Source: Candidatus Berkelbacteria bacterium
GTDB lineage: Bacteria; Patescibacteriota; UBA1384; XYA2-FULL-43-10; CAINNR01
DNA length: 64,000 nt
Direction of reading: 5' to 3'
Assembly: GCA_037142675.1 (NCBI GenBank)
Contig: JBAXAF010000001.1
Span: 28,543-92,542, forward strand
Each line of letters begins with the position of its first letter. The stretch's first letter is position 1. The position numbers and the translations under genes were made by a program. Positions 9,454-47,964 of the stretch are shown one piece after another. Under the pieces are notes generated by a model that was not told the origin of the DNA, searched no databases, and worked only from the letters and a program-made list of their open reading frames with translations.

Positions 9454-9522
9454 TGTCATTCCGGACTTGATCCGGAATCTCTATCAAAAGTAATTAGATC
9501 CTGAATCAAGTTCAGGATGACA
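9454..9522 (+). repeat. Family-1 double-hairpin REP-like element, copy A (TGTCAT-[TTCCGGA..TCCGGAA]-spacer-[CCTGAA..TTCAGG]-ATGACA)
   Basis: Terminal 6-bp inverted repeat TGTCAT/ATGACA plus two internal hairpins; intercistronic between the ABC permease and ATPase. Confidence 0.6.
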
Positions 9523-9542
9523 ATCTGAAAAAAGGAAATATT

Positions 9543-10220
9543 ATGAATAAAATAGTTGTTGAAGCTAAGGGCATAGAAAAAAGTTATAAAATGTCAAAGC
9601 AAAATGTTGTTTGCGCCCTTTGTGGTGTTGATATTGAGGTGAAAGAAGGTGATTTCTCGGCGATAATTGGCCCTTCTGGTTGTGGCAAATCAACTCTAAT
9701 GCATATATTAGGTTTGCTAGATCGTCCAGACTCAGGAGTTCTCAAGATTGATGGAATTGATATGACAAAATTACCAGAGAAACAAGCTTTCAAAATGCGG
9801 GCAAAAAAGATCGGCTTTATTTTTCAAGGATTTAATTTGATTCCAACCTTAACTGCGATAGAAAATGTTGTCCTTGCTGGCCGTTATGGTGGAATGAAAA
9901 AAGCTGCCAGGCTGAATCGAGCAAAAGAACTTTTGAAGATGCTTGGCTTGACTGATCGTATTAATCACAAGCCAAGCGAGCTTTCTGGTGGCCAACAGCA
10001 AAGAGTGGCAATCGCTCGGGCTTTAATGAATGATCCGGCAATTATATTAGCCGATGAGCCAACAGGGGAGCTTGATTCAAAAACATCCATGGAGATCATG
10101 GATATATTAAAGAAACTTAACAGAGAAGATAACAAAACCTTTTTAATTGTTACTCACAATATGGAAGTCGCTGAAGCCTGCAAGAAGATTGTCAAACTAC
10201 GCGACGGTAAAAACGCCTAA
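9543..10220 (+). CDS. ABC transporter ATP-binding protein
   Basis: Walker [13 protein letters not shown] signature [15 protein letters not shown], Walker B ILADEPT. Confidence 0.9.
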
Positions 10221-10238
10221 GGTTTTTTAACAAGGTGG

Positions 10239-11009
10239 TTAAAGATCTAAATTTCTGATGAATGTGTGCCAAGTTAGGCGTAGCCCTAAAGGAATATAGA
10301 AAAACAAATATTTTATCAGGGCTAGAACTGACCAAGTTCCGTAAATTGCTTTGGTTTGGTGGTTTTTTAGCGCCCGTTTTAAATCGGCGGCAGTTTTGCC
10401 TTCAAAAACCGTGTATGCTCGGCCAATTGCCTCAACAATATGGGCATCAGATCCGCCGGTTTCGCCACGAAAAAGAATAGTCTTATTTAGTGCTGATGCG
10501 GCTAGATTTTCATCGGCCAGAGTTGGTGTCCCATTTACAACCTCAACAGCATCTATTAAATATTTATTACTTATCAATTGTTTTGCGCCAATGCCGTCCA
10601 TGGTTGCTTGCGTCGGGTCATTAAAATTGGTGTGCATAAAAGGATGAGAGGGGACAGCAATTCCGCCTTGCTTGTGAATTTGTTCCAGAGTTGTATGAGC
10701 TGAATGTCCAGGTTCAATTGCTTCCTTCAAAAAAAGGCCAAGAATATGGCCGTGTTTCGAAGATATTTCTTCTCCAATTATTACATCAAAACGGTAATTA
10801 TTTCTTTCTGCGATTTTTACCGCCTGTTGCGCGCCTTCAATAGTGTCGTGATCAGTAATAGCGATAACGTTCAGATCAGTGTAATTTTGAACATATTCCA
10901 AAATTTGTTCAATTGTTGGCCGGCCATCAGAAAAATTACTGTGGATATGCACATCAGCACTGCTCAAACCTATAAAGTTCTCAAGTTTTTTTACCCCTCG
11001 CTTGTGCAT
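10239..11009 (-). CDS. PHP-domain metal-dependent phosphoesterase
   Basis: HIHSNFSDG ... AITDHD histidine/aspartate motifs typical of the PHP family. Confidence 0.75.
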   Translation of the reverse strand: MHKRGVKKLENFIGLSSADVHIHSNFSDGRPTIEQILEYVQNYTDLNVIAITDHDTIEGAQQAVKIAERNNYRFDVIIGEEISSKHGHILGLFLKEAIEPGHSAHTTLEQIHKQGGIAVPSHPFMHTNFNDPTQATMDGIGAKQLISNKYLIDAVEVVNGTPTLADENLAASALNKTILFRGETGGSDAHIVEAIGRAYTVFEGKTAADLKRALKNHQTKAIYGTWSVLALIKYLFFYIPLGLRLTWHTFIRNLDL

Positions 11010-11422
11010 TACTCGCCTTTATTGCTCTGGCCGAAACCACCCTGCTCCTCGTATCTTTCAGCGCCTTTAACCAAGGTGGCGCCAATCTTAAATTTGCGAA
11101 TTTTTCCTTCTGAGTCTAGAAATTCTTCTTTGTTGGATTTTTGATAAAAATCCAAAAGTTCAGCCGATAGAATATCTTTTAGAACACTAAGGTCTTGAGT
11201 GTTGTTTTTAATTTCCTCAACGTATTTTTGATTCTCTGGCAGGTTTAGAATTGTGTCTTTTACTTGCTTCTTTTTAATATTGGCAGTTTTTGCTTCTTCG
11301 CGAGCCTGAACATATTCCAAATCATTTTCGAGCTGCTGCTTAATAGCGTCTTTAGCGGCCTTAATTTCTTTTTGGTTTTTTTCTAACTCAGCGATTCGGT
11401 TTCGAATTTGGTCAACTTCCAT
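11009..11422 (-). CDS. Hypothetical coiled-coil protein
   Basis: Charged, Lys/Glu-rich ORF, stop overlapping the PHP start (operon-like). Confidence 0.45.
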   Translation of the reverse strand: MEVDQIRNRIAELEKNQKEIKAAKDAIKQQLENDLEYVQAREEAKTANIKKKQVKDTILNLPENQKYVEEIKNNTQDLSVLKDILSAELLDFYQKSNKEEFLDSEGKIRKFKIGATLVKGAERYEEQGGFGQSNKGE

Positions 11423-11547
11423 TTTATCCTCGATTCTTTAAATTATTTTTAACTCTTTTCATCAGCATGGCAGATATAGACACCAGGATCAAGTTTCGCT
11501 TGCTTCTTGAAGCGTTTTTGAACCAAACCCAACATGAGTTTTTGTCT

Positions 11548-11625
11548 TGGTCGGAGAGAGAGGATTCGAACCTCCGATCTTCGGACCCCCAGCCCGACGC
11601 ATTAACCGGACTATGCTACTCTCCG
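11548..11625 (-). tRNA. tRNA-Pro (anticodon GGG), CCA encoded
   Basis: Manual cloverleaf: 7-bp acceptor stem CGGAGAG/CTCTCCG, D-stem GCAT/ATGC, anticodon loop CUGGGGG, T-arm GGAGG-TTCGAAT-CCTCT, 3' ACCA. Confidence 0.8.
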
Positions 11626-11904
11626 TAATGTTCTACCCGTAAGCCCCAGCACCAGAGCAAAGCTCGGTACGGGGTGAATAAATTGGACTAGTGATAAAAG
11701 TGGGTGCCTCAGCACCAAGACCACGGTCCTAGCGCAATATTGAGCCAACCTTTCCATATCTTGCGACACAGATCAGCGCCCCGCATAACCTTGCGGCTAT
11801 TTGGGATCCCGACGTTAAAAAAATTGTGGTCCAATTTATTGAATCGGATAGAACATCATTAATATTAGCAGAAACTATTTTAACTTTTAAGATGCTCCAG
11901 AATT

Positions 11905-11945
11905 AAAAAATCGCCCGAAATACAGTTAGGCTGTCAGGCGATTTT
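11905..11945 (-). terminator. Intrinsic terminator downstream of rpmB
   Basis: AAAATCGCC..GGCGATTTT 9-bp stem followed by a T-run on the minus strand. Confidence 0.55.
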
Positions 11946-12107
11946 CTACTTGTCAGATTTGACAGCGGTACGCAAACAACGGGTGCAGAGAACTGTACCG
12001 TTAACTTTTTGTAGATTTGGCTTGAAAAGACGTTTGGTATGTCGCTGTGAATGGGAAACATTCGAGCCGACAACCTTGGCTTTTCCACAGATTGAGCAAA
12101 TGGCCAT
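11946..12107 (-). CDS. rpmB: 50S ribosomal protein L28 (53 aa, below the ORF-track cutoff)
   Basis: Translation [53 protein letters not shown] matches the L28 pattern (N-terminal Cys pair, SHSxxxTKRxFxPNLQ). Confidence 0.8.
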
Positions 12108-12279
12108 GATATTTAGTTTAAAACTAATAACGAATAACTAACAACCGCAACTTATAACAATTCAACTTCCAAAATTGAATCAAATTTGTTACAATACTTA
12201 AGAATTCTAACATAAATGTTTTAAAAATTCAACTTTCCAAAACTATTTGTTATTCACTTTTAGCTATTAGTTAATTATT

Positions 12280-12927
12280 ATGTTTCTACTTAACCTAATT
12301 TCTTCGCCATTTTTTGCCGTTGCAGCCATTGTTGGTTTGCTTTTGGCAATCACGGTTCATGAGTTTGCTCATGCTTGGATGGCCAATTACTTAGGCGATC
12401 CGACGGCAAAAAAACTTGGGCGGCTGACATTAAATCCTTTTAAACATTTGGATCCCCTGGGAACATTATTTTTATTGGTTGCTGGTTTTGGTTGGGGAAA
12501 ACCGGTGCCGTACAATCCATCAAATTTAAAATCCGATGCTGATGAAGTTAAGGTTGCACTGGCTGGAGTTTTTGCTAACCTAATATTTGCCTTAATTCTT
12601 GGTATCCCGCTACGGATTGCTACACTTAGCCACGTCGCAATTAATTCAAATATGTGGTTAATGGCAATTGAATTTGTGCTGGAAATGAATTTGATTTTAA
12701 TTGCTTTCAATATTATACCAATTCCACCACTCGACGGTTCGAAAATAATTTTTCAGTTTATTAGTTTTAACGCCCGAATGAGTTTTGAGCGATACGGTCC
12801 AATAATCTTATTCGCTTTAATAATTGCCAGCAATGTTTTTGGCTTTCCGTTTTTAGTCCGTTTTATGGAGCCAATAATCCGTGTACTCTCGTTTGCGGCT
12901 AAAGGAACATACACGGCGATATTTTAG
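12280..12927 (+). CDS. Site-2 protease family membrane metalloprotease (peptidase M50)
   Basis: HEFAHAWMA (HExxH) in a TM helix and a second-site LDG motif (NIIPIPPLDGSKI); multiple TMs. Confidence 0.8.
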   Translation: MFLLNLISSPFFAVAAIVGLLLAITVHEFAHAWMANYLGDPTAKKLGRLTLNPFKHLDPLGTLFLLVAGFGWGKPVPYNPSNLKSDADEVKVALAGVFANLIFALILGIPLRIATLSHVAINSNMWLMAIEFVLEMNLILIAFNIIPIPPLDGSKIIFQFISFNARMSFERYGPIILFALIIASNVFGFPFLVRFMEPIIRVLSFAAKGTYTAIF

Positions 12928-13043
12928 CATTATCATCATCGGTGATCTAAGATTCCTGTTTGCACAGCAATGACAGAATAAAAAACGCCCTGCCGGTGGT
13001 AAGACCGGCAGGGGTTGTGTTCGTGATTGAGCCGTTGCCAGTG

Positions 13044-13742
13044 CTACACAGCAGCGACTTCGTCGGCAGGGCCCTCGAGCAACGCATGGATCCTGTCGGC
13101 GTCGGTGGCATCCATGCCAGCCGACCGACGCAAGGCAACTAGCTCATTGAGCCGATGCTTCAATCGCTTGAATGCCTGGTTGGCGGTGACGATCCGGTCG
13201 TCGGCGCCCGAGCGAAGCGCTGACTCGATTTCAGCCAGCGTTTCCTTGACGATCTGGTTGCCCCGGATTTCATCCATGGTGAGTCCTGCTTCAACGGCCT
13301 CGTCGACGATCTTCTTGATCCGCTCGGAGAAGATCGGTCGGGAGTTGGCGATCAGGCTGTCGGCAGCTTGGCCAACGGTCGGTCGCTGGACCCGCTGACA
13401 CTTCTCGTGTTTCAGATCAGCATCAATTGCTGTCCAGGGCGTCTCGCTCTGGTGAGGGCCATCAGTTGGCTTCACCGTCAGAGCGACTTGGTCGGACGGC
13501 AACCAATTGCCATGAGGGTCGCCCATCAACTTCTTGCGCGTGTCGGGGCCAATGAAGACCTTTGCTCCCTGGTTGGCCCCTTCGCCGCTGAGACACTCGA
13601 CAATAGTGGCGCGGCCGAAGCGCTCGTGGAGCGCCTCGATTTCGACCACCACTGCTAGTACGTCTGACTTTCGGTAATGCTGGCGGCGCTTGCCCTGTTC
13701 CATGATTACACTTTCTGTGCAAATATGATCTGGCTTCGTCAA
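13044..13742 (-). CDS. Hypothetical protein from a high-GC ORF (likely true start at internal Met, about 13703)
   Basis: ORF with high GC; intrinsic terminator downstream (12988-13020, CCCTGCCGG..CCGGCAGGG plus T-run); no recognisable domain. Confidence 0.45.
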   Translation of the reverse strand: MTKPDHICTESVIMEQGKRRQHYRKSDVLAVVVEIEALHERFGRATIVECLSGEGANQGAKVFIGPDTRKKLMGDPHGNWLPSDQVALTVKPTDGPHQSETPWTAIDADLKHEKCQRVQRPTVGQAADSLIANSRPIFSERIKKIVDEAVEAGLTMDEIRGNQIVKETLAEIESALRSGADDRIVTANQAFKRLKHRLNELVALRRSAGMDATDADRIHALLEGPADEVAAV

Positions 13743-13868
13743 GTCGAAGCTCTCAATTCACGCGCTTTGTGCGGCGGATGGTCAGAATTGTAGCATAAAA
13801 TTATATATTTGTCAATAAAAAAAGCCTGCCACGGACGGCAGGCAGTGCTTGGTTGTTGGTGGGGCCGG

Positions 13869-14590: not shown

Positions 14591-14663
14591 TTGATTTAGA
14601 TTGTCCGCAGGATCATCTTCGATAGACCGCGCCCTTCGGGCTTGCAATGACAAAACAAAGAAA

Positions 14664-27068: not shown

Positions 27069-27337
27069 AACAAAATACTTTTTCTGATAAGGCAATGCTA
27101 GTGGTAAGCTTGGCTTTGCTGGTACTAATTATTGTCACATTTGTTTGGATGTGGTTCTGGTCAAGCCGACCGTCAGTAGATAGCTTCAAAACAACAGATA
27201 ACTTGCAGCCGATTAGTGTGGCCGGGCTTGAGACTCGGGCTCAAAAAATTCTTGATGGTTTAAAAAATAATTCTGGCATTCCAATCCCCGAACCTACCTC
27301 GAAGGAGGGACGGGATGATCCATTTGCCAGTCTTTAA
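27065..27337 (+). CDS. Small membrane protein in the pilus operon (PilP-like?)
   Basis: 90 aa, one TM, translational coupling with the upstream gene. Confidence 0.35.
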   Translation: MKQNTFSDKAMLVVSLALLVLIIVTFVWMWFWSSRPSVDSFKTTDNLQPISVAGLETRAQKILDGLKNNSGIPIPEPTSKEGRDDPFASL

Positions 27338-27339
27338 AT

Positions 27340-27470
27340 GAAATTATAATATCAAAATTCTAAATTCTAAACAAACCCAAATGATCAAATTCTTGAATAT
27401 TAAAGAAGATAAAACATTTTAATTTTGATATTGTTTAGGAATTAGATATTAGAGTTTAGAAATTTGTATT
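27340..27470 (+). repeat. AT-rich, roughly 130-bp element with terminal inverted repeats (AATTCTAAATTCTAAAC ... GTTTAGAAATT), copy X, upstream of pilB
   Basis: Shares TTCTAAACAAAYCCAAATGAYCAAA core and inverted ends with copy Y at 36386-36525. Confidence 0.45.
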
Positions 27471-31066: not shown

Positions 31067-32269
31067 ATGATGAGATTTAAATACAGGGCGAAAAATGATC
31101 GCGGCGACATGGTCGGCGGCGTTGTTCGAGCTGATAATGTTTTGGCCGCAGAAAAGATTCTGCGTTCAAATAATCTGGTTACCGTCGACATTTTCCCCGA
31201 AACCACTGAGGTTTTTTCGGTTTTTGGAATTCGCAAAAAGGTTTCTCTTAGAGACAAGGCTATTTTTTCCAGCCAGCTTTCCACTATGGTTTCTGCTGGT
31301 TTGTCGTTGCCAAAGTCAATCAACATTATTGCGGCCCAAACTGATAATCAGTATCTCAAAAGTATTTTTTATAACGTCAACCGCGACCTAGAAGAAGGGT
31401 TGAATTTCTCATCTTCATTGGCAAAATACCCGGATGTTTTCGACGAGCTTTTTGTTAATGTTGTTAGGTCGGGCGAATCAACCGGTAACCTTGAAACAGT
31501 AATGCAGCGAATGTCAGAGAAAATTGATAAAGATCAAAATTTGTCTGCCAAACTTTTCTCAGCAATGATTTACCCAATCTTCATTATTGTAGCTTTAATT
31601 GGTGTCGGCTGGTTATTACTGGTGAAAATTGTGCCGCAAATTGAATCTGTTTTTAAAGATTCCAACGCCGCTCTTCCTTGGGCGACATCGACCTTAATTT
31701 CCATTTCCCATTTTCTCTCCGGCTACTGGTGGATAATATTATTAGCTGTGCTTTTACTTGTATTTTTTGGTCGCTATTATCTGGCCACAAATCAAGGTAA
31801 GGCCTTTTACGCCAAGGCACAATTAAGCATCCCAGGGTTCAAGAAGGTGTCATCAGATGTCTATATGGCAAGGTTCTGTCGAACAATTCAAATGCTTTTT
31901 GAGTCGGGTGTGCCGCTTTTGGACGCAATTAACACAACCGGTAACGTTATGGTAAACAGCTACTACAAAAGTTCGCTCCAAAGAATTTCAAAAGAGGTTC
32001 AAAAAGGTGTATCATTAAGTGTAGAACTTTCTAAGGATCCATTGTACCCACCGCTAATTAGCCAAATGATGGCGGTTGGCGAGCAAACCGGTAAATCTGC
32101 TGATGTAATGGAGAAATTGGCTAAGTTTTATGAAGACGAAGCTCAGAACGCAATCAGTGGTGTATATTCATTGGTTGAGCCGCTAGCTATGGTTCTTGTA
32201 GGCATTGGAGTGGCTGTCTTAGTTTTTGCTATATTAGTTCCAATATATCAAATAGCACAAATGCAGTAA
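31067..32269 (+). CDS. pilC: Type IV pilus platform protein PilC (GspF family)
   Basis: Two GspF repeats, three TM segments, position after pilT. Confidence 0.85.
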   Translation: MMRFKYRAKNDRGDMVGGVVRADNVLAAEKILRSNNLVTVDIFPETTEVFSVFGIRKKVSLRDKAIFSSQLSTMVSAGLSLPKSINIIAAQTDNQYLKSIFYNVNRDLEEGLNFSSSLAKYPDVFDELFVNVVRSGESTGNLETVMQRMSEKIDKDQNLSAKLFSAMIYPIFIIVALIGVGWLLLVKIVPQIESVFKDSNAALPWATSTLISISHFLSGYWWIILLAVLLLVFFGRYYLATNQGKAFYAKAQLSIPGFKKVSSDVYMARFCRTIQMLFESGVPLLDAINTTGNVMVNSYYKSSLQRISKEVQKGVSLSVELSKDPLYPPLISQMMAVGEQTGKSADVMEKLAKFYEDEAQNAISGVYSLVEPLAMVLVGIGVAVLVFAILVPIYQIAQMQ

Positions 32270-32330
32270 GCCGCGGTCGGTCGGTAGCATTGAATTGCTA
32301 ATTTAGTTAAATATTTATTTAGGAGGAAAA

Positions 32331-32849
32331 ATGAAGAGTAGAAAAGCCTTTACATTAATTGAGCTTCTTATTGTTATCGCCATTATTGGCATTTTGGCTG
32401 CTGTTATCTTTGTCAGCTTGAACGCTGCTAGAAAGAAAGCCTATGATGCGCAAGTTAAGAGCGACATGACATCGCTTTCACAGGCCCTTGAGATTGTTAA
32501 GATAGACAGAACCTTGCCAGGATTTAATTGGTCCACACTTGTAGATGTCCCTTCAACCGTTGCCACTTCAAATGATGCCAATATTGCTCGCTGGACAGAC
32601 AGTGGTGATGCTACAACCGGTAATCGATTGGTTCCGAAACTACCTACTAATCCAAATGGTGGCGTTTATGGCATTCACATTATTGCTGGCAACTCTTACT
32701 CCATGGTTGGCGCACTTAGTGTCGCGAACAAATTTTACTGCATTAAAGACGGCCAATCCAAAGAGTTTACTGCGGTTGCAACCGCCGCCGCTGGGACAAC
32801 TCCAGCAGCCACCAATCTTCAAAATGCTCATACGGCGTGTGATTCCTAG
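32331..32849 (+). CDS. Type IV pilin (copy 1)
   Basis: Class III signal MKSRKA|FTLIELLIVIAIIGILAAV, C-terminal Cys pair, RBS AGGAGG. Confidence 0.8.
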   Translation: MKSRKAFTLIELLIVIAIIGILAAVIFVSLNAARKKAYDAQVKSDMTSLSQALEIVKIDRTLPGFNWSTLVDVPSTVATSNDANIARWTDSGDATTGNRLVPKLPTNPNGGVYGIHIIAGNSYSMVGALSVANKFYCIKDGQSKEFTAVATAAAGTTPAATNLQNAHTACDS

Positions 32850-32873
32850 AAGTGATTCTTAGCTTTTGTTAAT

Positions 32874-32909
32874 GTTTGTCCCGCTTCTAGCGGGACAAAC
32901 TTGTTTTTT
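32874..32909 (+). terminator. Intrinsic terminator after pilin 1 (identical copy after pilin 2 at 33730-33765)
   Basis: TTTGTCCCGC-TTCTA-GCGGGACAAA stem-loop plus T-run. Confidence 0.6.
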
Positions 32910-32924
32910 CTACCATATATTTAT

Positions 32925-33030
32925 GGTAAATAGCTACTACAAAAGTTCACTGTAAATAATTTCAAAAGAGCTCCAAAAAGTGTATCATTATAAGTGTAGA
33001 ACTTTACAAATAGCACAAATGCAGTAAGCC
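32925..33030 (+). pseudogene. Degenerate partial copy of the pilC 3' end (duplication remnant)
   Basis: About 80% identity to pilC 31940-32010 plus the last 35 nt of pilC/intergenic (AAATAGCACAAATGCAGTAAGCCGCGGTCGG...), internal deletion, frame destroyed. Confidence 0.55.
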
Positions 33031-33079
33031 GCGGTCGGTCGGTAGCATTGAATTGCTAATTTAGTTAAATATTTATTTA

Positions 33080-33131
33080 CCCCTGTTAAATGCGCCTACG
33101 GCGCAACTCGCGAAACGAGTATTTAACGGGG
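33080..33131 (+). repeat. Family-2 structured palindromic element, copy 2, inserted between the duplicated pilin promoter and its RBS
   Basis: CCCCTGTTAAAT...ATTTAACGGGG enclosing hairpins GCGCC-TAC-GGCGC and ACTCG-CGAAA-CGAGT; absent from the otherwise identical region upstream of pilin 1. Confidence 0.55.
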
Positions 33132-33143
33132 TGTAGGAGGAAA

Positions 33144-33701
33144 ATGCGAAAAGTAATGCAGTCCGCCTGTGGCGGAAAGAGTAGAAAAGCCTTTACATTA
33201 ATTGAGCTTCTTATTGTTATCGCCATTATTGGCATATTGGCTGCCGTTATCTTTGTTAGTTTGAACGCTGCCAGAAAGAAAGCCTACGATGCGCAAGTTA
33301 AGAGCGATATGACATCACTTTCACAGGCCCTTGAGATTGTTAAAATTGATAGGCCTCTAACCCCAATGCCACTAGCTTTCACGCAGCTTATATATGATAA
33401 GGATAATCTTGGCACATCTGACAGAAATATTGCTCGCTGGACAGACAGTGGTGATGCCGCAACTGGAGGCAGGTTAGTGCCAAAGCTTCCAATTAACCAA
33501 AATAATTCTTCATATTTTATCAACATCGGACCTACATCGAGCGATTATGCGCTTATTAGCGCGCTTAGTATTCCTAACAAGTTTTTCTGTGTTCACAATG
33601 GACAGTCGTTTGAAATTATTGGTGTAGCCACAGCTGCGGCTGGCACCACTCCTGCCGTTCCTGTTTTTACAGATGCAAAAAATCAGTGCGCTACGTCCTA
33701 G
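33144..33701 (+). CDS. Type IV pilin (copy 2, divergent C-terminus)
   Basis: MRKVMQSACGGKSRKA|FTLIELLIVIAIIGILAAV; N-terminal 50 aa nearly identical to pilin 1; RBS GGAGGAAA. Confidence 0.75.
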   Translation: MRKVMQSACGGKSRKAFTLIELLIVIAIIGILAAVIFVSLNAARKKAYDAQVKSDMTSLSQALEIVKIDRPLTPMPLAFTQLIYDKDNLGTSDRNIARWTDSGDAATGGRLVPKLPINQNNSSYFINIGPTSSDYALISALSIPNKFFCVHNGQSFEIIGVATAAAGTTPAVPVFTDAKNQCATS

Positions 33702-33772
33702 CCTAGCGTGTCCTTTGCGTATATGGAAAGTTTGTCCCGCTTCTAGCGGGACAAACTTGTTTTTGCTAAGAT

Positions 33773-34534
33773 ATGTTTATGGCAGTAGCTTTAATTTTTT
33801 TGCTGGTCGGCTTGTTTGTTGGCAGTTTTTTAAATGTGCTAATTTTTCGCTTTCCTGAGATGAAAGGCTTGGTTTCTGGCCGCTCCTATTGTCCTCACTG
33901 TAAAAAAACCATTGCTTGGTTCGATCTTATTCCGGTTGCGAGCTATATTATTCTTTGGGGTAAGTGTCGAAATTGTCGAAAACAAATATCATTGCAATAT
34001 CCACTGGTTGAAATATCTACTGGAATCGTCTTTTTTTTCTTGGCAAAAACAATTGGTGTTGACTACCCACTAATCGGCTATTTGTTGATCGCTTGTGTAT
34101 CTATGTTAATTTTCGTATATGACGCCAAGTTTCTTGAAATTCCTGAAGTTTTTTCCTGGTTGCTGTTGATTTCCGCAATCGTGCTTACGGTACTTAGTTC
34201 AAGTTTTTCTATAAACGATTTTCTATTAGGTGGCTTAATTGGCGGTGGTGTACTGGGAATTATGGTGGGTATTTCGGAAGAACGGATGATGGGATCAGGC
34301 GACATCAAAATTGGTCTAGCTTTTGGTTTTTTGCTCGGTGCCCACAGATCAATCCTGTTTTTATTTTTATCGTTTATTATTGGTGCTATTGTCGGTTTAA
34401 TCCTAATGATGTCTAGCAAGAAAAAAGTGCAGTCAGAAATTGCTTTTGCGCCTTTTTTAATTATAGCAGCCCTAATTTGTATTATTTGGGGTAACCAGCT
34501 AGTTAATTTGTGCCAAAAATTTGCTATGATATAA
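33773..34534 (+). CDS. pilD: Prepilin peptidase PilD (A24 family)
   Basis: N-terminal CxxC..CxxC zinc motif (CPHCKK..CRNCRK), eight TMs, catalytic Asp region. Confidence 0.85.
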   Translation: MFMAVALIFLLVGLFVGSFLNVLIFRFPEMKGLVSGRSYCPHCKKTIAWFDLIPVASYIILWGKCRNCRKQISLQYPLVEISTGIVFFFLAKTIGVDYPLIGYLLIACVSMLIFVYDAKFLEIPEVFSWLLLISAIVLTVLSSSFSINDFLLGGLIGGGVLGIMVGISEERMMGSGDIKIGLAFGFLLGAHRSILFLFLSFIIGAIVGLILMMSSKKKVQSEIAFAPFLIIAALICIIWGNQLVNLCQKFAMI

Positions 34535-36385: not shown

Positions 36386-36525
36386 TAAAATCAATTTCTA
36401 ATATCTAATTCCTAATTTCTAAACAAATCCAAATGACCAAAATCCAAATTTTTAAAACTTTAAGATATTTGAATTTTGAAATTGTCTGGAGTTTAGAGGT
36501 TGGAATTTAGAATTTAATTTTGCGG
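36386..36525 (+). repeat. AT-rich, roughly 140-bp element, copy Y, downstream of the last pilin
   Basis: Related to copy X (27340-27470): CTAATATCTAATTCCTAA at its left end is the reverse complement of TTAGGAATTAGATATTAG at the right end of X, and the two copies share a core. Confidence 0.45.
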
Positions 36526-37517: not shown

Positions 37518-37945
37518 TGGATAAGATTTATATAAATACAGACGGTGGATCTCGGGGAAATCCAGGTCCTGCAGCGGTTGGCGTAGTTTTTTTTGATGCC
37601 GATCAAAAAGTTATTCATGAATACAAGGAGTGTATTGGCCACGGAACAAATAATGAGGCGGAGTACCTTGCAATTATCAAAGCATTGGAGATATTAACTA
37701 AATCCAAGTGGTTTGCTGAAAATAATATTGTCGAGAAAGAAGTAATCTGTCGGCTTGACTCACAGCTTGTGGTTGAACAGATCAATGGTAATTATAAAAT
37801 TAAACAGGACCACTTAAAGCTTTTTATTGCTCAAATTCGACAAATGATTGCCCAAATGCAGCTAAGTATCTCTTTCATTCACATCCCACGGGAGGAGAAC
37901 AAGTTGGTCGACAAATTGGTCAATAAAGCGCTGGACGAGGCTTAA
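37517..37945 (+). CDS. rnhA: Ribonuclease HI
   Basis: DGGSRGNPGPAAVG and the catalytic D/E/D framework; about 140 aa. Confidence 0.85.
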   Translation: MDKIYINTDGGSRGNPGPAAVGVVFFDADQKVIHEYKECIGHGTNNEAEYLAIIKALEILTKSKWFAENNIVEKEVICRLDSQLVVEQINGNYKIKQDHLKLFIAQIRQMIAQMQLSISFIHIPREENKLVDKLVNKALDEA

Positions 37946-37985
37946 TTTGTCATTGCGAGGAGATGTGCGACGTGGCAATCTCATT

Positions 37986-38054
37986 TGTCATTCCGGACTT
38001 GATCCGGAATCTATCTAATAGTTTTTTGGATCCTGAATCAAGTTCAGGATGACA
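37986..38054 (+). repeat. Family-1 double-hairpin element, copy B (nearly identical to copy A), preceded by an extra partial left end (37948-37956 TGTCATTGC)
   Basis: TGTCATTCCGGACTTGATCCGGAAT...CCTGAATCAAGTTCAGGATGACA; ends 10 nt before the DUF167 ATG. Confidence 0.6.
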
Positions 38055-38064
38055 GAAAAATACC

Positions 38065-38286
38065 ATGAAAGTCTCCATCAAAGTTATTCCATCTGCTAAA
38101 GTTGAACAAATCCAGCCAGCTCTAGATGGCTCTCTAAAAGTTTGGTTACGTGCTCGCCCAAAAGAAGGCGAGGCTAACAAAGCACTTGTAAAATTACTTT
38201 CAAAACATTTTGATGTCCCAAAAACATCAATAGATATCGTTTCTGGTCTAACCTCTCGGAACAAAGTTGTTGAAATAGAAAAATAG
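38065..38286 (+). CDS. DUF167 (YggU/UPF0235) family protein
   Basis: About 73 aa; I..KV.P.AK......DG.L.V.L.A.P..G.AN..L...L pattern. Confidence 0.7.
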   Translation: MKVSIKVIPSAKVEQIQPALDGSLKVWLRARPKEGEANKALVKLLSKHFDVPKTSIDIVSGLTSRNKVVEIEK

Positions 38287-43152: not shown

Positions 43153-43188
43153 ATCTATCAGTAGATTCCCGTTTCAGCGGGAATGACA
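43153..43188 (+). repeat. Family-1 element, right half only (ATCTATCAGTAGATTCCCG-TTTCAG-CGGGAATGACA)
   Basis: Matches the right hairpin and terminus of copies C/D with a compensatory stem; abuts the rplU RBS AGGAG. Confidence 0.5.
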
Positions 43189-43200: not shown

Positions 43201-43518
43201 ATGTTCGCAATCGTAAGCCTTGCTGGCAAGCAGTTTACTGTTGAAACTGGCAAGAAAATCAAAATTGATTCCAAGCTAGAATCCAAAGACATGAAAATTA
43301 AACTTTCTGAGGTTTTGTTAATTGCCGACGAAAAAAAACTAATTATCGGCAAGCCTACAGTTGACGGTGCTTCAGTTGATGCTGAAATTTTGGAAGAGAA
43401 AAAAGCAGCAAAAGTTTTGATCGTTAAGCATCATCCGAAAAAAAGGTACAGACGAACAATTGGCCACAGACAAGATCTAACAACTTTAAAAATCCTAAAA
43501 ATAAATGAAGGAAAATAA
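43201..43518 (+). CDS. rplU: 50S ribosomal protein L21
   Basis: MFAIVSLAGKQFTV...KHHPKKRYRRTIGHRQDLT matches the L21 pattern; RBS AGGAG. Confidence 0.8.
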   Translation: MFAIVSLAGKQFTVETGKKIKIDSKLESKDMKIKLSEVLLIADEKKLIIGKPTVDGASVDAEILEEKKAAKVLIVKHHPKKRYRRTIGHRQDLTTLKILKINEGK

Positions 43519-43702: not shown

Positions 43703-43705
43703 ATT

Positions 43706-44371
43706 ATGACAAGCTCAAAATCCAAAGCTGAAGATCCACAAGTTGAAGAAGTAAAATCTGAAGTTGTTGATGTTGAAGAATCTGCGGCAGAGGAAATTCC
43801 AGCTGAGGAAGTTAAGCCGACAATTTTGAAAACCAACCGTCAGTCTGGTGAGCGCAACTGGTATGTGATTCATACTTATTCTGGCTACGAAGAGCAGGTA
43901 TCAGACAATCTAAAACAACGGATTGAATCATTTGGCATGGAAGATAAAATTTTTGATGTTATCGTTCCGAAAGAAAAACAAATTGAAATCCGAAACGGTA
44001 AACGCAGAACTGTTGAGAAAAGAATATTTCCAGGTTATGTTTTGGTTGATATGATAGTCGATGATGATTCTTGGTATGTTGTTAGAAATACACCAAACGT
44101 CACCGGCTTTATTGGCTTCGGCGTTAGACCGACACCAATGTCAATCGAAGAAATTGAACGAATCAAAAAACGAATGGGCGTTGAAGAACCAAAATATAAA
44201 ATTGAATTCACAATTGGTGACTTGGTTAAAATCACCGACGGCGCACTTAAAGGATTTGACGCTAAGGTTGAAGATATTGATCACGAAAAAGGTAAGATTA
44301 AAGTTTTGGTTAATATGTTTGGACGCGAGACCCCAGTGAATCTCGACTTCCTGCAAGTAAAGAAAGTATAA
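43706..44371 (+). CDS. nusG: Transcription antiterminator NusG with acidic N-terminal extension
   Basis: NGN domain ([11 protein letters not shown]) and C-terminal KOW ([18 protein letters not shown]). Confidence 0.85.
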
Positions 44372-44381
44372 GGAAAAAACA

Positions 44382-44807
44382 ATGGCAAAAGAAGTAAAAG
44401 CAATAATTAAATTACAGTGTGCTGCCGGTAAAGCTAACCCAGCACCACCAGTTGGCCCAGCTTTGGGACAGCATGGTGTAAACATTATGGAATTTTGTAA
44501 TTCCTTTAATGAGCAAACCAGAGAATTAGGTGACACTATTATTCCGGTAGAAATAACAGTTTTCGAAGATCGAACTTTTTCTTTCATCTTGAAAAATCCA
44601 CCAGCAGCAATTCTATTGAAAAAAGCTATCAATATTGAAAAGGGTTCAGGAAGCTCAAAAAAAGAAAAAGTTGGTAAAATTTCTCAGGCAAAACTTCGAG
44701 AAATCGCTGAAATTAAATTACCGGACTTAAATGCTAAAACCGTAGACGCAGCAATGAATACTTTGGCTGGAACTGCAAAGAACATGGGTATCGAAGTAGA
44801 GAAGTGA
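44382..44807 (+). CDS. rplK: 50S ribosomal protein L11
   Basis: [39 protein letters not shown] - canonical L11 N-terminus. Confidence 0.9.
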
Positions 44808-44815
44808 CCCATTGG

Positions 44816-44881
44816 GTCATCCCGCACTTGATGCGGGATCCACAAATAGTTTAGTAGATTCCCGCCTTCGCGGGAATGACA
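44816..44881 (+). repeat. Family-1 double-hairpin element, copy C (GTCAT-[CCCGCA..TGCGGG]-spacer-[ATTCCCGC..GCGGGAAT]-GACA)
   Basis: Same architecture and spacer (ATCCACAAATAGTTTAGTAG) as copy D; both stems differ from copies A/B but remain paired. Confidence 0.6.
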
Positions 44882-44890
44882 TTGAATACA

Positions 44891-44926
44891 AAAATCTCCC
44901 TATGAAAACAGGGAGATTTTTGGTAG
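44891..44926 (+). terminator. Intrinsic terminator after rplK
   Basis: AAATCTCCCT-ATGAAAAC-AGGGAGATTT 10-bp stem followed by TTTTGG. Confidence 0.55.
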
Positions 44927-46908
44927 AATGGTATGTTAGTCAAAAAAATCGCACCTACTTTGCTATCCACGACCCGTTTAAGCCAAAGGAGGGGCAAAGG
45001 CTTTCTAGATACGTAGATAGCAAATTAGATACGATTACTATTAACTTAATCATAGCAAAATTGTCAGCGATGTCAAATAAAACTCTAAAGATAGAAAACG
45101 GTCAAAGTATGAAAATTGATGATCTTATCATAGGTCTTCATACTTTGGGTTATGAGCGAGTCGAACACTTGACTAACTTTGGGCAGTTTTCTGTTTCTGG
45201 TGGGCTAGTAACGATTTACTCTTCAGCTAATTTTTATCCAATAACACTGGATTTTTTTGGCAACCAGATTGATCAAATTTATTCATTTGATATTTTAACT
45301 AATTACAAAAAGGAAAAAATCAGTTCGCTAGAAATTGCTGACAACAAAATTAAGTTAGATGAGAATATTGTTAAGCCTGCAGAACTAGTAGTCCATATTG
45401 ACCACGGAATTGGAATATATCGTGGCAGGATCTTAAAAAAATTGGGGGCAAAATGTCAGGAATTTTTAGCCATTGAATATGCAAATGGCGATTTTTTGTA
45501 TGTGCCAGAGAAAGTTATTGCCAAATTAACAAAGTATCTTGGTATCAGTCGAAAAACTCCGCGACTCTCAAGATTGGGTTCTACCGTTTGGGAAAAAACT
45601 AGAAAAAAAATTGAGGAAAGTATTTTAGCCCTGGCCAAAGAGTTGCTGTTGGTATATGCCAAAAGAGAGCTCATTACCCGACCAAAATATAAGATTGATC
45701 TTGCCTGGGATAAGAAATTAAAAGCAACTTTTAAACACATCGAAACTCCTGATCAAGAGCGAGCAATTTCAGAAATTTACCAAGACTTAGAGTTGGGCCG
45801 TCCAATGGACAGGCTGCTAATCGGTGATGTTGGATTTGGTAAAACCGAAGTTGCTGTTCGGGCTGCTGCTCAGGTAATTGAAAATGGTGGCCAGGTGGCA
45901 ATTTTGGCCCCAACAACAATCCTTTCCCGTCAGCATTTTGTTACCATTACCGATCGACTAAAGGACTTGCCAATTCAGGTTGCTGAGCTTTCAAGGTTCG
46001 TCAAGAGACAAGATCAAGAAAAAATTGTCGCCGGTTTAAAATCTGGAAAGATTGACTTGGTTGTTGGAACTCACCGGCTGATTAAATCGGATATTGCTTT
46101 CAAAAATCTTGGTCTCTTAATCGTTGATGAGGAACAACGGTTTGGTGTCAAAGACAAAGAAAAATTGAAAGGTTTCAAAAACGATGTCGATATTTTATCC
46201 CTTTCGGCGACTCCAATTCCTAGAACGTTGTTTATTTCACTCTCCGGAATTCGCCAGCTTTCAGTTATCAAAACTCCACCAGCCGGACGCAGGCCAATTG
46301 AAACTAAAATTGAAAAGTACGATGTCAAAAAAATTGAAGAGTATATGCTGTTAGAATTAAATCGTGGCGGTCAAGTATATTTTCTTCACAATGATGTCAA
46401 AACTATTGAAGCCAGAGCGGCAGAATTTCGTCGAATTTTTCCCAAAGCAAATATTGCCGTTGGTCATGGGCAGATGCCTGAAGAAAAACTGTCACAAGTT
46501 ATGGCCGATTTTGCGGCAATGAAAATTGATATTTTGTTTTGCTCAACAATCATTGAAAATGGTTTAGATATTCCAACAGCTAATACTTTGATAGTCGAGG
46601 ATGCTGATAATTTTGGATTGTCGCAGCTGTACCAAATTCGGGGACGAATCGGCAGGGGAGAGAATCAGGCATTTTCTTATTTCACATACAAAAAAAATCT
46701 AGTTGGTAATGCTTACAAAAGATTGCAGGCCTTGGCCGAAAAGACTGATTTAGGTAGTGGTTTTGATATTGCCTATTCCGACTTGGAAATTCGTGGTGGT
46801 GGTAACATTTTAGGCAAAGAACAACATGGAAACATGGAAGAACTTGGATTGATACTATATACAAAGCTTTTAAATCAAGCAGTTGGAAGATTAAAGTCGA
46901 AGAAATAA
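44902..46908 (+). CDS. mfd: Transcription-repair coupling factor, N-terminally truncated relative to canonical Mfd (start uncertain; 44902 lies in the terminator loop, next in-frame ATG 45070)
   Basis: UvrB-like D1b block (GQFSVSGGLVTIYS..ITLDFFGNQIDQIYSFD), CarD/RID domain (HIDHGIGIYRG), SF2 translocase motifs (GDVGFGKTEVA, DEEQRFG, TRG-like) ; only about 25 aa after motif VI. Confidence 0.65.
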   Translation: MKTGRFLVEWYVSQKNRTYFAIHDPFKPKEGQRLSRYVDSKLDTITINLIIAKLSAMSNKTLKIENGQSMKIDDLIIGLHTLGYERVEHLTNFGQFSVSGGLVTIYSSANFYPITLDFFGNQIDQIYSFDILTNYKKEKISSLEIADNKIKLDENIVKPAELVVHIDHGIGIYRGRILKKLGAKCQEFLAIEYANGDFLYVPEKVIAKLTKYLGISRKTPRLSRLGSTVWEKTRKKIEESILALAKELLLVYAKRELITRPKYKIDLAWDKKLKATFKHIETPDQERAISEIYQDLELGRPMDRLLIGDVGFGKTEVAVRAAAQVIENGGQVAILAPTTILSRQHFVTITDRLKDLPIQVAELSRFVKRQDQEKIVAGLKSGKIDLVVGTHRLIKSDIAFKNLGLLIVDEEQRFGVKDKEKLKGFKNDVDILSLSATPIPRTLFISLSGIRQLSVIKTPPAGRRPIETKIEKYDVKKIEEYMLLELNRGGQVYFLHNDVKTIEARAAEFRRIFPKANIAVGHGQMPEEKLSQVMADFAAMKIDILFCSTIIENGLDIPTANTLIVEDADNFGLSQLYQIRGRIGRGENQAFSYFTYKKNLVGNAYKRLQALAEKTDLGSGFDIAYSDLEIRGGGNILGKEQHGNMEELGLILYTKLLNQAVGRLKSKK

Positions 46909-46942
46909 AATACTCTGGGCTGAAGCCACAGAGTATTTTTTA
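46908..46942 (+). terminator. Intrinsic terminator after mfd
   Basis: AATACTCTG-GGCTGAAGCCA-CAGAGTATT plus T6. Confidence 0.55.
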
Positions 46943-47020
46943 GCGCTCTGTATGCTTTCAGCTTCATTATTAATCGCTTCATCCTCGAACTAAAGTTTGA
47001 GGTTTTCGCTATCTTGTTAT

Positions 47021-47052
47021 AAAAAACACCGCCCATTACGTCGGACGGTGTG
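47021..47052 (-). terminator. Intrinsic terminator after the GC-rich gene 47080..47508, followed by TTTTTTATAACAAGAT
   Basis: CACCG..CGGTG hairpin plus T-run on the minus strand. Confidence 0.5.
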
Positions 47053-47079
47053 ACAACTCGGAAAGTTGTCGGGTTCGCG

Positions 47080-47508
47080 CTAGAAGCCGTTGGTGTGATC
47101 ACCGCTCTGATGACCAGCCGGCGGGTCGGTGAGGCGAAGGTCATTCGGATCGGGTTGCGGCGGGATGCCATGTTGAGGAGGTGGGGCATTCTTGTTCAAG
47201 GCCTCAATCATAGCGCGGTCGTCGATTACAACTGTGATGATCGGTCCAGAACTGTCATGAACTGGTGCCAGTGCCGCTTGCGCAGGTGATGGCGACCGCT
47301 TGACAGCCTGGTACTGCTCCTCGTCGACCATTACCATCCAGCGATACCACCGACCAAGGTGGTCAAGTTTCCAGACAATGTCGGAGCCGGTGACCTTTCC
47401 GACCTGGTTGGAGCGGCAGAGCCGATAGTTGTCCATGCCGGCCGAAATGCCAAACAGGACAACCGCTACCCACAGAACCAACCCGATAAACGTCAGGTTA
47501 TCTTTCAT
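47080..47508 (-). CDS. Hypothetical membrane-anchored protein from a high-GC ORF
   Basis: Start MKDNLTF with RBS GAGGCGAGAG; N-terminal TM FIGLVLWVAVVLFGI; Pro-rich C-terminus. Confidence 0.45.
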   Translation of the reverse strand: MKDNLTFIGLVLWVAVVLFGISAGMDNYRLCRSNQVGKVTGSDIVWKLDHLGRWYRWMVMVDEEQYQAVKRSPSPAQAALAPVHDSSGPIITVVIDDRAMIEALNKNAPPPQHGIPPQPDPNDLRLTDPPAGHQSGDHTNGF

Positions 47509-47622
47509 CTCTCGCCTCACTACGTGTGATTTTCAGCGTATGTATAAACTATAGCACATTATCATAAAAAAGTCAACTAAAAAATGCCTTCGATACTTTA
47601 TCTCAGGCATTTTTCGATCAAT

Positions 47623-47838
47623 TTAGAACTTGTCTATGTATGGATTTGGGGCATCTTCTTTACCAGTGAGCTTTTTCATTGCCTTGGCGACCCTGGCCTC
47701 TTCTGGAGTCCGATAAGTTACAGGCTCAGACGGCAATAATTCTCTCTTTAGTGGTTCAGCTTTTGACATTGATGGTGGTAGTGGAGCTGGATCATTGTAC
47801 TCAAACCCTATTTGTCCTCCGGCTTCAGGATTTCCCAT
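47623..47838 (-). CDS. Small hypothetical protein (71 aa)
   Basis: Strong RBS GAGGAGG 4-5 nt before ATG; intrinsic terminator (47577-47615) directly after the stop. Confidence 0.45.
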   Translation of the reverse strand: MGNPEAGGQIGFEYNDPAPLPPSMSKAEPLKRELLPSEPVTYRTPEEARVAKAMKKLTGKEDAPNPYIDKF

Positions 47839-47893
47839 AGTGCCTCCTCAAAAATATATATTTAAGTTACTATTATAGTATAGCAAAAAAATT

Positions 47894-47964
47894 TGTCATC
47901 CTCGGACGGCGTAGCCAGATCCGGGGATCCACTAATAGTAGATTCCCGCCTTTGCGGGAATGAC
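47894..47964 (+). repeat. Family-1 double-hairpin element, copy D (left hairpin with enlarged loop)
   Basis: TGTCATCCTCGGA-CGGCGTAGCCAGA-TCCGGGGATCCACTAATAGTAGATTCCCGC-CTTT-GCGGGAATGAC; abuts the dprA RBS GGGGGAAAG. Confidence 0.6.

Follow-up and report, generated by a model that had tools for sequence, protein, structure and literature searches.

Double hairpins that recur in a 64,000-nucleotide stretch of a Candidatus Berkelbacteria genome (the window) are, judged by their sequence, members of the NTS/dRS3 'Ssn-related motif' (SRM) family, and extend a known system rather than representing a new kind of element. SRMs, which are NTS-like, form hairpins that small GIY-YIG nucleases named Ssn bind and cleave as ssDNA, and not as dsDNA or RNA (Chenal et al., Nat Commun 2025, PMC11893778). 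The building block is a single oriented hairpin of the form GTC-[8-bp stem]-loop-[stem']-C; two such units in inverted arrangement, with their 5' ends out, make a full element. The window elements are probably gene-less inverted doublets of such oriented DNA hairpins, reliant on an Ssn-type enzyme whose gene lies elsewhere or was formerly present.

Results

Hairpin units and their gene context

Every full copy has the form TGTCAT-stem-loop-stem-ATC, an AT-rich spacer of 11-17 nt, and GAT-stem-loop-stem-ATGACA. The four full copies recognized in an earlier note on this DNA are where it placed them, with ends adjusted to 44815 and 47965. Doublet 1 (9454-9522; covariance-model matches of 42.5 and 43.1 bits) is composed of a plus-strand left unit at 9454-9482, GTCATTCCGGA-CTTGA-TCCGGAATC, an 11-nt spacer, and a minus-strand right unit at 9494-9522, GTCATCCTGAA-CTTGA-TTCAGGATC, and lies between the stop codon of an FtsX-like permease gene (9447) and the start of an ABC ATPase gene (9543). 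Doublet 2 (37986-38054; 46.2 and 42.5 bits) has the same hairpins as doublet 1 and a different spacer, and is located between an RNase H-like gene (stop at 37945) and a DUF167 gene (start at 38065). In tandem with it, at 37948-37980, is a lone plus-strand unit (TGTCATTGCGAGGAGATGTGCGACGTGGCAATC) belonging to the 'ATTGCGAG...GGCAAT' subtype; this unit scores only 9.4 bits with a covariance model built from other subtypes. Its first nucleotides (37948-37956) had been taken for a degenerate end, but they are the beginning of a full hairpin that represents a different, widespread subtype (GTCATTGCGAG...CGTGGCAATC).

Doublet 3 (44815-44881), with a plus-strand left unit GGTCATCCCGCA-CTTGA-TGCGGGATC and a minus-strand right unit TGTCATTCCCGCGAAGGCGGGAATCTAC at 44854-44881, is situated between the rplK stop codon (44807) and a terminator-like hairpin at 44890-44921; the real start of mfd is at about ATG 45070. 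Doublet 4 (47894-47965) fills the 5' UTR of dprA, leaving 9 nt to the ATG at 47975. Its plus-strand left unit (47894-47932), with a loop of 13 nt and a single T·G pair, was found at 23.4 bits though absent from the model-building set, and its minus-strand right unit (47938-47965; CGTCATTCCCGCAAAGGCGGGAATCTAC) matches at 37.1 bits. What had been called a half copy is a solitary right-hand unit, TGTCATTCCCGCTGAAACGGGAATCTAC, on the minus strand at 43161-43188, an exact dRS3 with a covariance-model match of 40.1 bits; it sits in the 5' leader of rplU, with 12 nt separating it from the ATG at 43201. A possible degenerate single unit (TGTCATTGCTGTGCAAACAGGAATC) on the minus strand at 12948-12975, 3' of an M50 peptidase gene in the space separating convergent genes, has one stem mismatch and is uncertain (11.2 bits, E 1.6). 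The degenerate end suggested at 14627-14652 is not supported: it has a fold z of +0.13 and no covariance-model match, and the window contains GCAATGACA five times.

All loci are intergenic, as the earlier note had it, in a window of which 13.3% is intergenic, and the chance of six independent loci all falling there is ~5e-6. A distance of 10-25 nt to the next start codon had also been proposed, and four of the five copies do lie close to one (gaps of 20, 10, 12, and 9 nt); the exception is 44815-44881, between the rplK stop and the terminator. The uniform orientation described in the earlier note is only partly borne out: a sixth doublet, 6.3 kb past the window end and upstream of rplJ, has its two hairpin types swapped between sides, and 49 of the 60 window genes are on the plus strand anyway.

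Hairpin structure and covariation

A unit covariance model run over the window with filters off gives exactly nine significant units, all of which have GTC, an 8-bp stem starting AT, and C. In the alignment of window units 100% of the paired cells are complementary, compared to 6-55% in slid controls, and four of the eight stem pairs have both-sided changes (18 cells), such that the shared double-hairpin architecture with compensatory stems described at the outset is borne out. Folding agrees with this: RNA folds of full copies beat shuffles by 3.3-5.2 sd (z = -3.3 to -5.2) and ssDNA folds by 3.9-5.9 sd, with two local hairpins as the predicted ssDNA fold of each doublet. In public data, a pattern with 4+4 stem positions left free returned perfectly complementary stems in 128 of the 143 matches listed, representing 13 different stems. 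The hairpins are therefore under selection, both in the window and in public data.

Hairpins are common at gene ends and a genuine terminator-like hairpin (44890-44921) follows doublet 3, which might bring to mind ordinary intrinsic terminators or a chance similarity. However, a T-run follows none of the units, the units are missing from the terminator-like sites of the window scan, chance expectations are about zero, and the model E-values are 1e-7 to 1e-9. The statistics rule out this explanation, to which we attach a negligible probability.

Relationship to NTS, dRS3 and SRM

The right-hand units at 44854-44881 and 47938-47965 (both minus strand) match the published Neisseria NTS consensus, CGTCATTCCCGCGMAVGCGGGAATCYRG, at 26 of 28 nt (0 expected by chance), with the two mismatches of each at the first and the last or loop position. 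The NTS authors themselves tolerate one mismatch to the consensus (PMC11893778), and no window unit has one or fewer; the chance expectation is nil even at three mismatches. The NTS consensus contains dRS3, and exact dRS3 sequences (ATTCCC-N8-GGGAAT) are present at 43165-43184, 44858-44877, and 47942-47961. With these matches, the view that the elements resemble known repeats but have a distinct sequence is only partly true. The published SRM pattern, HGTCWYN(0-2)YYVSBRHN(0-5)WNVSBRGN(0-2)RNCYNB, has three window matches as compared with 0.17 in shuffles, namely the two NTS-like right units at 44854 and 47938 and a partial match on 47894. Neither CTTGA-loop nor ATTGCGAG units gave a match to this degenerate pattern in the window scan, although both subtypes adjoin Ssn-like genes elsewhere. 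The C following the palindrome and the 3 nt preceding it are critical in SRMs (PMC11893778), and the window units all carry the SRM frame GTC...C, critical positions included.

Presence and absence in close relatives

At the FtsX|ABC junction, a 94%-identical relative (L478) has just 8 nt and no element, and the corresponding insert in the window is 87 nt, of which the doublet accounts for 69 nt; no target-site duplication is visible at this, the one cleanly comparable empty site. L243 (90% IleRS identity) has overlapping RNase H-like and DUF167 genes and nothing of the 37948-38054 cluster. The solitary unit at 43161-43188 is kept in L243, where its loop differs by one change, but is absent in L244 and L245, and L244 has a matching doublet with compensatory stem changes at the doublet 3 junction. 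No units were found in 63 kb of three relatives. Presence/absence polymorphism is seen at three junctions, different repeat types occupy the same intergenic slots in relatives, and the relatives' genes keep their ribosome-binding sites at element-free junctions. Because they are absent at the same gene junctions in close relatives (90-94% protein identity), the elements are insertions.

Units and Ssn-like genes in public sequence

Two unit patterns are each present in more than 120 IMG/VR contigs among the matches listed, a third in at least 119 metagenome contigs, and the GTCATTGCGAG...CGTGGCAATC subtype has 51 instances in the 35 public loci examined. Neighbouring units are predominantly arranged with 5' ends out, in 107 cases versus 44 reverse and 42 tandem at viral loci, and in 91 versus 24 and 5 at metagenome loci; the doublet architecture is thus general, beyond the present genome. 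Among 31 Ssn-like GIY-YIG genes gathered by protein similarity, a unit lies within 250 nt of 19, and 15 are bordered by units on both sides, the upstream one on the plus strand and the downstream one on the minus strand. CTTGA-loop units flank three of these genes. The ATTGCGAG subtype seen at 37948 flanks Ssn-like genes in two other Berkelbacteria assemblies, GCA_026397205.1 and GCA_026397135.1 (L481 and L482), one of which also has a CTTGA-loop unit nearby. It is likewise found at Ssn-like genes in L431 and L483. Identical 25-mers flank nuclease genes in unrelated contigs. Ssn proteins consist of a single GIY-YIG domain (cd10448), and the motif typically borders their genes (PMC11893778). 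The Ssn-like proteins had no named match in NCBIfam or PDB, and there is no ssn or other GIY-YIG gene in the window and ~10 kb beyond each end (84 kb).

The likeness to REP/BIME and miniature mobile elements drawn in the earlier note, of a repeat family kept as hairpins, is a fair one, and inverted hairpin doublets that are intergenic and multi-copy are what REP/BIMEs or REPINs spread by RAYT, an IS200/IS605-like tyrosine transposase, would look like. We nonetheless consider RAYT-driven spread very improbable here. Typical REP sequences have the motif GTAG, whereas the conserved 5' motif of the units is GTC(A/T); no transposase domains, Y1 included, were found among the scanned window genes or flanks; and it is GIY-YIG genes, not RAYT genes, that are unit-flanked in the 19 of 31 loci.

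A somewhat less remote, yet still improbable, explanation is that the hairpins serve as target sites of a recombinase, as dRS3 does for a filamentous-phage recombinase in Neisseria. Phage integration at dRS3 is documented (PMC1797815; PMC11893778), and the abundance of units in IMG/VR contigs and the replacement of one repeat type by another at the same slots in relatives would fit such a role. It would, however, cover the use of the hairpins and not their existence as many-copy doublets, and none of the window copies has a recombinase or an integrated element next to it.

FtrB and RNA-level roles

Screening of Rfam for a named family gave no match at the gathering threshold, but three window doublets match FtrB (RF02748) at 43.1, 30.0, and 26.3 bits, all below its threshold of 66 bits; doublet 3 has 43.1 bits and doublet 4 has 30 bits, and the two best matches run against the direction of local transcription. 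The outcome that the earlier note had named as refuting, a covariance-model match to a known named family, is thus seen in part. FtrB is a Francisella sRNA of 115 nt, verified by Northern blot (Postic et al. 2010, PMC3091763), which was described as Francisella-only and was not recognized as a repeat (PMC3091763). The FtrB consensus, too, has the form of a doublet, with a core shared with the window doublets.

This Northern-verified sRNA (PMC3091763) is among the observations favouring a view of the elements as mainly RNA elements in 5' UTRs or between cistrons, controlling translation or protecting mRNA in the manner of E. coli REP, with some of them perhaps acting as small RNAs. In four window copies and the rplJ copy, only 9-20 nt separate the end of the element from a start codon, and a promoter or ribosomal-protein leader lies upstream; the RNA folds (z = -3.3 to -5.2) are stable. 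However, each doublet has one sense and one antisense unit and the types swap sides at rplJ; the same junctions are element-free in 90-94% identical relatives with ribosome-binding sites intact; one copy is 3' of rplK and the weak unit is between convergent genes; and single stem mismatches occur with no G·U tolerance (20 G·T versus 29 A·C). Moreover, identical 25-mers lie beside nuclease genes in unrelated contigs, deletion of FtrB had no phenotype (PMC3091763), and SsnA does not bind RNA (PMC11893778). We regard a mainly RNA-level function as unlikely. Nonetheless, because four or five copies are in 5' UTRs near a start codon, an RNA-level effect outside the SRM explanation is possible. The role in mRNA stability or translation considered in the earlier note may be a side effect, but it leaves the family unexplained in view of the two orientations, the absence from relatives, and the lack of G·U excess.

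Discussion

Proposed origin of the doublets

We favour the explanation in which the doublets are gene-less miniatures of SRM-ssn-SRM, inserted in short intergenic spaces; they are read this way because their arrangement is the same as that of the units flanking ssn genes elsewhere. They would depend on an Ssn-type enzyme whose gene lies in another part of the genome or was once present. Ssn cuts a few nt 5' of the hairpin (PMC11893778), and the cut-site ends would face outward in the doublets. Since each doublet has one cleavable unit per strand, either strand would be recognizable when single-stranded, and single-stranded DNA stages such as uptake or replication may allow units to be recognized. 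We infer, rather than show, that an Ssn acts on the window copies, and the same holds for the route by which they spread and for any effects on transformation or on the mRNAs containing them.

The site of an unseen transposase envisaged in the earlier note thus finds a partial counterpart, in that a DNA enzyme encoded outside the window is most plausible, but the established partner of this family is Ssn, a GIY-YIG ssDNA nuclease of roughly 95 aa and not a known transposase (PMC11893778). More speculatively, and with considerable doubt on our part, SRM doublets could be non-autonomous, MITE-like elements derived from SRM-ssn-SRM and moved in trans by the ~95-aa GIY-YIG nuclease, which in the compact CPR genomes would settle between a promoter or leader and the ribosome-binding site, alternate there with other small repeats, and could yield RNAs such as Francisella FtrB. 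GIY-YIG nucleases are not known to perform strand transfer. If true, this would represent an unrecognized class of bacterial mobile element in which the 'transposase' is a minimal GIY-YIG enzyme.

Comparison with known systems

The closest relationship is to SRM/Ssn (PMC11893778), with which the window elements share the oriented frame of GTC, palindrome, and C, an intergenic and multi-copy distribution, two units with 26 of 28 NTS positions, and the SRM-gene-SRM arrangement at small GIY-YIG genes, Berkelbacteria included. They differ in having a host of the CPR/Patescibacteria lineage, which is unmentioned in PMC11893778, in that most copies are closely spaced inverted pairs enclosing no gene and separated by spacers of 11-17 nt, in the CTTGA-loop and ATTGCGAG subtypes that are outside the published degenerate pattern, and in the lack of an ssn gene in 84 kb.

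With Neisseria dRS3 and NIMEs they have in common three exact ATTCCC-N8-GGGAAT sequences, intergenic location, and variability between close relatives. NIMEs, however, are dRS3 arrays flanking 50-150 bp RS elements and are described as Neisseria-specific (PMC1797815), whereas these are isolated doublets with spacers of 11-17 nt in a different phylum. The FtrB (RF02748) consensus, consisting of GUCAUUCCCGCGUAGGCGGGAAUC, a spacer, and an antisense CTTGA-loop hairpin, has the composition of 44815-44881, but its flanks are absent from the window doublets, which score below 66.

REP/BIMEs, REPINs, and MITEs differ in the associated protein, which here is a GIY-YIG nuclease of undemonstrated transposition activity, and REP and REPIN also in that no RAYT was found in the window and flanks and the motif is GTCAT, not GTAG. 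Of the features by which MITEs are defined, inverted ends are present and presence/absence polymorphism is seen at three junctions, and no target-site duplication is visible at the FtsX|ABC empty site. Like all of these, the elements are short intergenic palindromes in inverted pairs that look like non-autonomous kin of a hairpin-flanked gene.

Architecture and position of the hairpin elements

The window contains four full elements (doublets 1-4, at 9454-9522, 37986-38054, 44815-44881 and 47894-47965) and a single right-hand hairpin at 43161-43188, with the sequences and at the places described in the earlier note. When copies are compared in register, the basic unit is seen to be a single hairpin rather than a pair, and a repeat finder independently sorted the hairpin copies into two families (D6 and D8). 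Each unit consists of GTC, an 8-bp stem starting AT, a loop of 4-5 nt (13 nt in one), the complementary stem and a C. A full element is composed of a plus-strand unit, an AT-rich spacer of 11-17 nt and a minus-strand unit, and the GTC ends of a doublet therefore point outward. Outside the window, 6.3 kb beyond its end, a sixth doublet separates the rplJ leader from the ribosome-binding site of that gene. Because the two hairpin types are on swapped sides in this doublet, the uniform orientation claimed earlier is not a rule; 49 of the 60 genes in the window are on the plus strand in any case.

A covariance model of the unit, run with filters off, gives significant scores to nine units in the window, with no other convincing match. 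Position 37948, previously regarded as a degenerate end, is where a complete unit of another subtype begins (GTCATTGCGAG...CGTGGCAATC, 37948-37980), of which there are 51 instances in 35 public loci fetched for other purposes. A weak extra unit (12948-12975, -) lies between convergent genes, and 14627-14652 was removed from the family on both its fold score and the covariance model. All of the element loci are intergenic in a window whose intergenic share is 13.3%. For four copies a start codon follows closely (20, 10, 12 and 9 nt downstream), as had been proposed for every copy; doublet 3 departs from this, being placed between the rplK stop codon and a conserved terminator-like hairpin.

Covariation of the stems

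The proposal that the stems remain complementary through compensatory change is well borne out, and the covariation is genuine. When 11 units of the window and its relatives are aligned with two forms of the Neisseria Transformation Sequence (NTS) consensus, 100% of cells pair, and in four of the eight pairs both members change; with the partner shifted by one to three columns, pairing falls to 6-55%. The elements also fold 3.3-5.2 sd better than shuffles as RNA and 3.9-5.9 sd better as ssDNA, in which each forms two local hairpins. The RNA minimum-energy fold of doublets 1 and 2 is one long hairpin with the left arm pairing to the right; this was rejected, as it is not the fold of doublets 3 and 4, nor of any doublet as DNA, and the covariation is within each arm. 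A search of IMG/VR with 4+4 stem positions left free gave perfect complementarity in 128 of the 143 matches listed, over 13 different stems, which shows strong maintenance of the hairpin far outside the Berkelbacteria genome studied.

Relationship to NTS, dRS3 and Ssn-related motifs

The unit sequence was traced by full-text search to Chenal et al. 2025 (PMC11893778), who describe the NTS as CGTCATTCCCGCGMAVGCGGGAATCYRG, including the classical dRS3 repeat, and define a broader hairpin class of 'Ssn-related motifs' (SRM). SsnA, a single-domain GIY-YIG protein of 94 aa, binds the hairpin exclusively as ssDNA and on a single strand, and cuts it a few nucleotides upstream; the three nucleotides that precede the palindrome and the C that follows it are critical (PMC11893778). 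The ssn genes are typically flanked by the motifs in an arrangement like that of an insertion sequence, and the system is hypothesized to behave like one (PMC11893778).

The units at 44854-44881(-) and 47938-47965(-) each have two mismatches to the NTS consensus, where none are expected by chance, and dRS3 is exact in three units; the sequence is thus not distinct, contrary to what was first thought. The published degenerate SRM pattern matches three window sites (0.17 in shuffles), picking up NTS-like units only. More than 120 IMG/VR contigs have a match to each of two unit-type patterns. We conclude that the element belongs to the known NTS/dRS3/SRM family, here as doublets that carry no gene and in a phylum new to the family. 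A search of the literature on REP-type repeats in Patescibacteria returned nothing relevant.

Doublets and Ssn-like genes in other genomes

Metagenomes were scanned with the NTS-like right unit and the 3′ flank of the Berkelbacteria lineage studied. In most of the 125 matches listed, another unit lies on the opposite strand 15-60 nt upstream, and in several of the contigs listed this partner is a CTTGA-loop unit. Neighbouring units predominantly have their 5′ ends out, both at metagenome loci (91, versus 24 reversed and 5 tandem) and at viral loci (107, versus 44 reversed and 42 tandem) among the matches listed.

Protein similarity, using a 5-sequence alignment, recovered 31 Ssn-like GIY-YIG genes, and the Pfam GIY-YIG domain was confirmed on representatives; NCBIfam and PDB sequence searches gave these proteins no named match. 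A unit lies within 250 nt in 19 of the 31, with units on both sides in 15, the upstream one being a plus-strand unit (-46 to -86) and the downstream one a minus-strand unit (+12 to +41). CTTGA-loop units flank three of the genes. Some Ssn-like proteins are annotated from Candidatus Berkelbacteria, and in two such assemblies the gene sits between ATTGCGAG-type units – resembling the 37948 unit – with 5′ ends out, one locus also having a CTTGA-loop unit 200 nt downstream. At both loci the ORF nearly fills the gap between the units, so a locus that lost the ORF would resemble the window doublets, with a short AT-rich spacer between its two units. No GIY-YIG or ssn gene was found in the 84 kb of this genome read (window plus flanks) by a six-frame pattern search, by phmmer with a single Ssn-like query protein or with an HMM of Ssn-like ORFs.

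Two of the fetched loci have further features. A Berkelbacteria locus (L481 15106-16484) has a bAvd gene adjoining a reverse transcriptase gene, as in diversity-generating retroelements, approximately 5 kb from an Ssn-like gene. A Patescibacteria relative's locus (L251 2154-2870) has a 410-bp tandem repeat in which a 94-aa GIY-YIG gene has been duplicated together with the 3′ half of a tRNA gene; this GIY-YIG gene ends in a perfect palindrome, TCCGCCAGAGGCGGATCCGCCTCTGGCGGA, and has no GTCAT-type hairpins at its end.

Insertion polymorphism and turnover

By exact protein matches the window corresponds to lake metagenome assemblies and to NCBI GCA_964526775.1 (contig CAZGMR010000011.1). The nearest species representatives, compared by IleRS, are Candidatus Berkelbacteria or Patescibacteria assemblies represented by loci L243 (90%), L245 (79%) and L244 (73%). 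In a relative with a 94% identical FtsX, the FtsX stop and ABC ATPase start codons are separated by 8 nt; the window has 87 extra nt at this junction, 69 of which are the doublet, and no target-site duplication is visible at the empty site. The RNase H and DUF167 genes overlap in L243, and a 107-nt three-unit cluster lies between them in the window. L243 shares the rplU-leader unit with the window; L244 and L245 lack it. The more distant L244 has the doublet on the rplK side, with fully compensated stem changes (two left, one right), and ACACAGATA-type repeats take the place of this doublet in L243 and L245. Three relatives have zero units in 63 kb. From these presence/absence differences it follows that turnover is fast and that the neighbouring genes do not need the elements.

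The ACACAGATA-like repeats (L243 15640-15670; L245 about 4540-4560, 6470-6500 and 9760-9800) are another small repeat type, occupying in close relatives the slots of window doublets or units at rplK|mfd, in the rplU leader and upstream of dprA. Upstream of dprA, L244 has yet another hairpin doublet, and landing or turnover seems to recur at these slots.

This dispensability in close relatives speaks against the alternative that the elements act chiefly at the RNA level, as does the presence of both unit orientations inside each doublet. Several copies lie within 5′ UTRs, as that reading would expect, but G·U is not favoured in mismatched stems (20 G·T versus 29 A·C, p = 0.25), and nuclease genes associate with identical units. 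A search of Rfam at gathering thresholds returned nothing but tRNAs in the window. Also in favour of an RNA-level role, the model of FtrB – a Northern-verified 115-nt Francisella sRNA (RF02748) – matches three doublets below threshold, at 44800-44898(-), 47868-47982(-) and 37972-38081(+). It does so because the FtrB consensus itself combines an NTS-like unit with an antisense CTTGA-loop unit. Deletion of FtrB has no phenotype, which counts against that role as the main one. On sequence grounds FtrB looks like a transcribed member of the hairpin repeat family, a link that is in neither the FtrB paper nor the Ssn paper.

Other features of the window

Genes of the window include a type IV pilus cluster (PilN, PilO, PilB, PilT, PilC, pilins and prepilin peptidase) and those for DprA, RecR, TopA and Mfd; none encodes a transposase. 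A pilin gene is tandemly duplicated at 32249-33782 (D1-D4, D11), with an identical 73-nt upstream segment, and a 176-nt 5′ coding part that is 94% identical; each copy is followed by a conserved terminator-like hairpin, TTTGTCCCGCTTCTAGCGGGACAAA. The 69-nt direct repeat AAATTCTAAAC..CAAATGAYCAAA (78% identity; D7, D15) forms a second family of small intergenic repeats. Its copies at 27336-27404 and 36388-36456 occupy gaps between same-strand genes, shortly before pilB and the gene for tryptophanyl-tRNA synthetase. Three CTAATAGCTGTCAGCTGCTAGC-type repeats (55154-55184, 55377-55407 and 55826-55856; D12) were assigned to a 1.3-kb gene-free gap at 53922-55206, and by coordinate arithmetic one metagenome assembly of the genome ends near them.

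A mechanical ORF (44812..46908) extends mfd across doublet 3, where 44812-44890 translates to LGHPALDAGSTNSLVDSRLRGNDIEY; the extension is broken by a stop codon in L243, and the mfd start is likely the ATG at 45070. Open frames across the repeats can be miscalled as protein N-termini or small hypothetical proteins. Between the rplK terminator (44890-44921) and this likely start, 44945-45045 is a conserved structured non-coding candidate, not coding given the in-frame stop in L243. Its core, TTTGCTATCCACGACCCG..AAGCCAAAGGAGGGGCAAAGGCTT..CTAGATACGTAGATAGCAAA, is nearly identical in L243, L245 and L244, its consensus fold has 26 pairs, three with compensatory changes, and it has no Rfam match at E<=1.

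The best promoter-like match of the scanned region, at 47872-47899(-) (ATGACA-16-TATAAT, 11/12), uses the outward-facing left end of doublet 4 as its -35 hexamer and is directed at the divergent gene 47623-47838(-). It may be fortuitous; L245 lacks a doublet at that site.

Discussion

With these findings the Ssn/SRM system, described only recently, is placed in the candidate phyla radiation, in Berkelbacteria, hosts with tiny genomes and DNA-uptake genes, the pilus cluster and DprA being in the window itself. They also tie a named Rfam sRNA family, FtrB, to the hairpin repeats, and account for a class of spurious 'hypothetical proteins' across the repeats (e.g. ...DSRLRGND...). The basic picture of the known system is unchanged. 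Inverted doublets that carry no gene are the common form of the repeat, and their ends are arranged like the flanks of the nuclease genes, an arrangement that fits the insertion-sequence-like hypothesis of the 2025 paper (PMC11893778).
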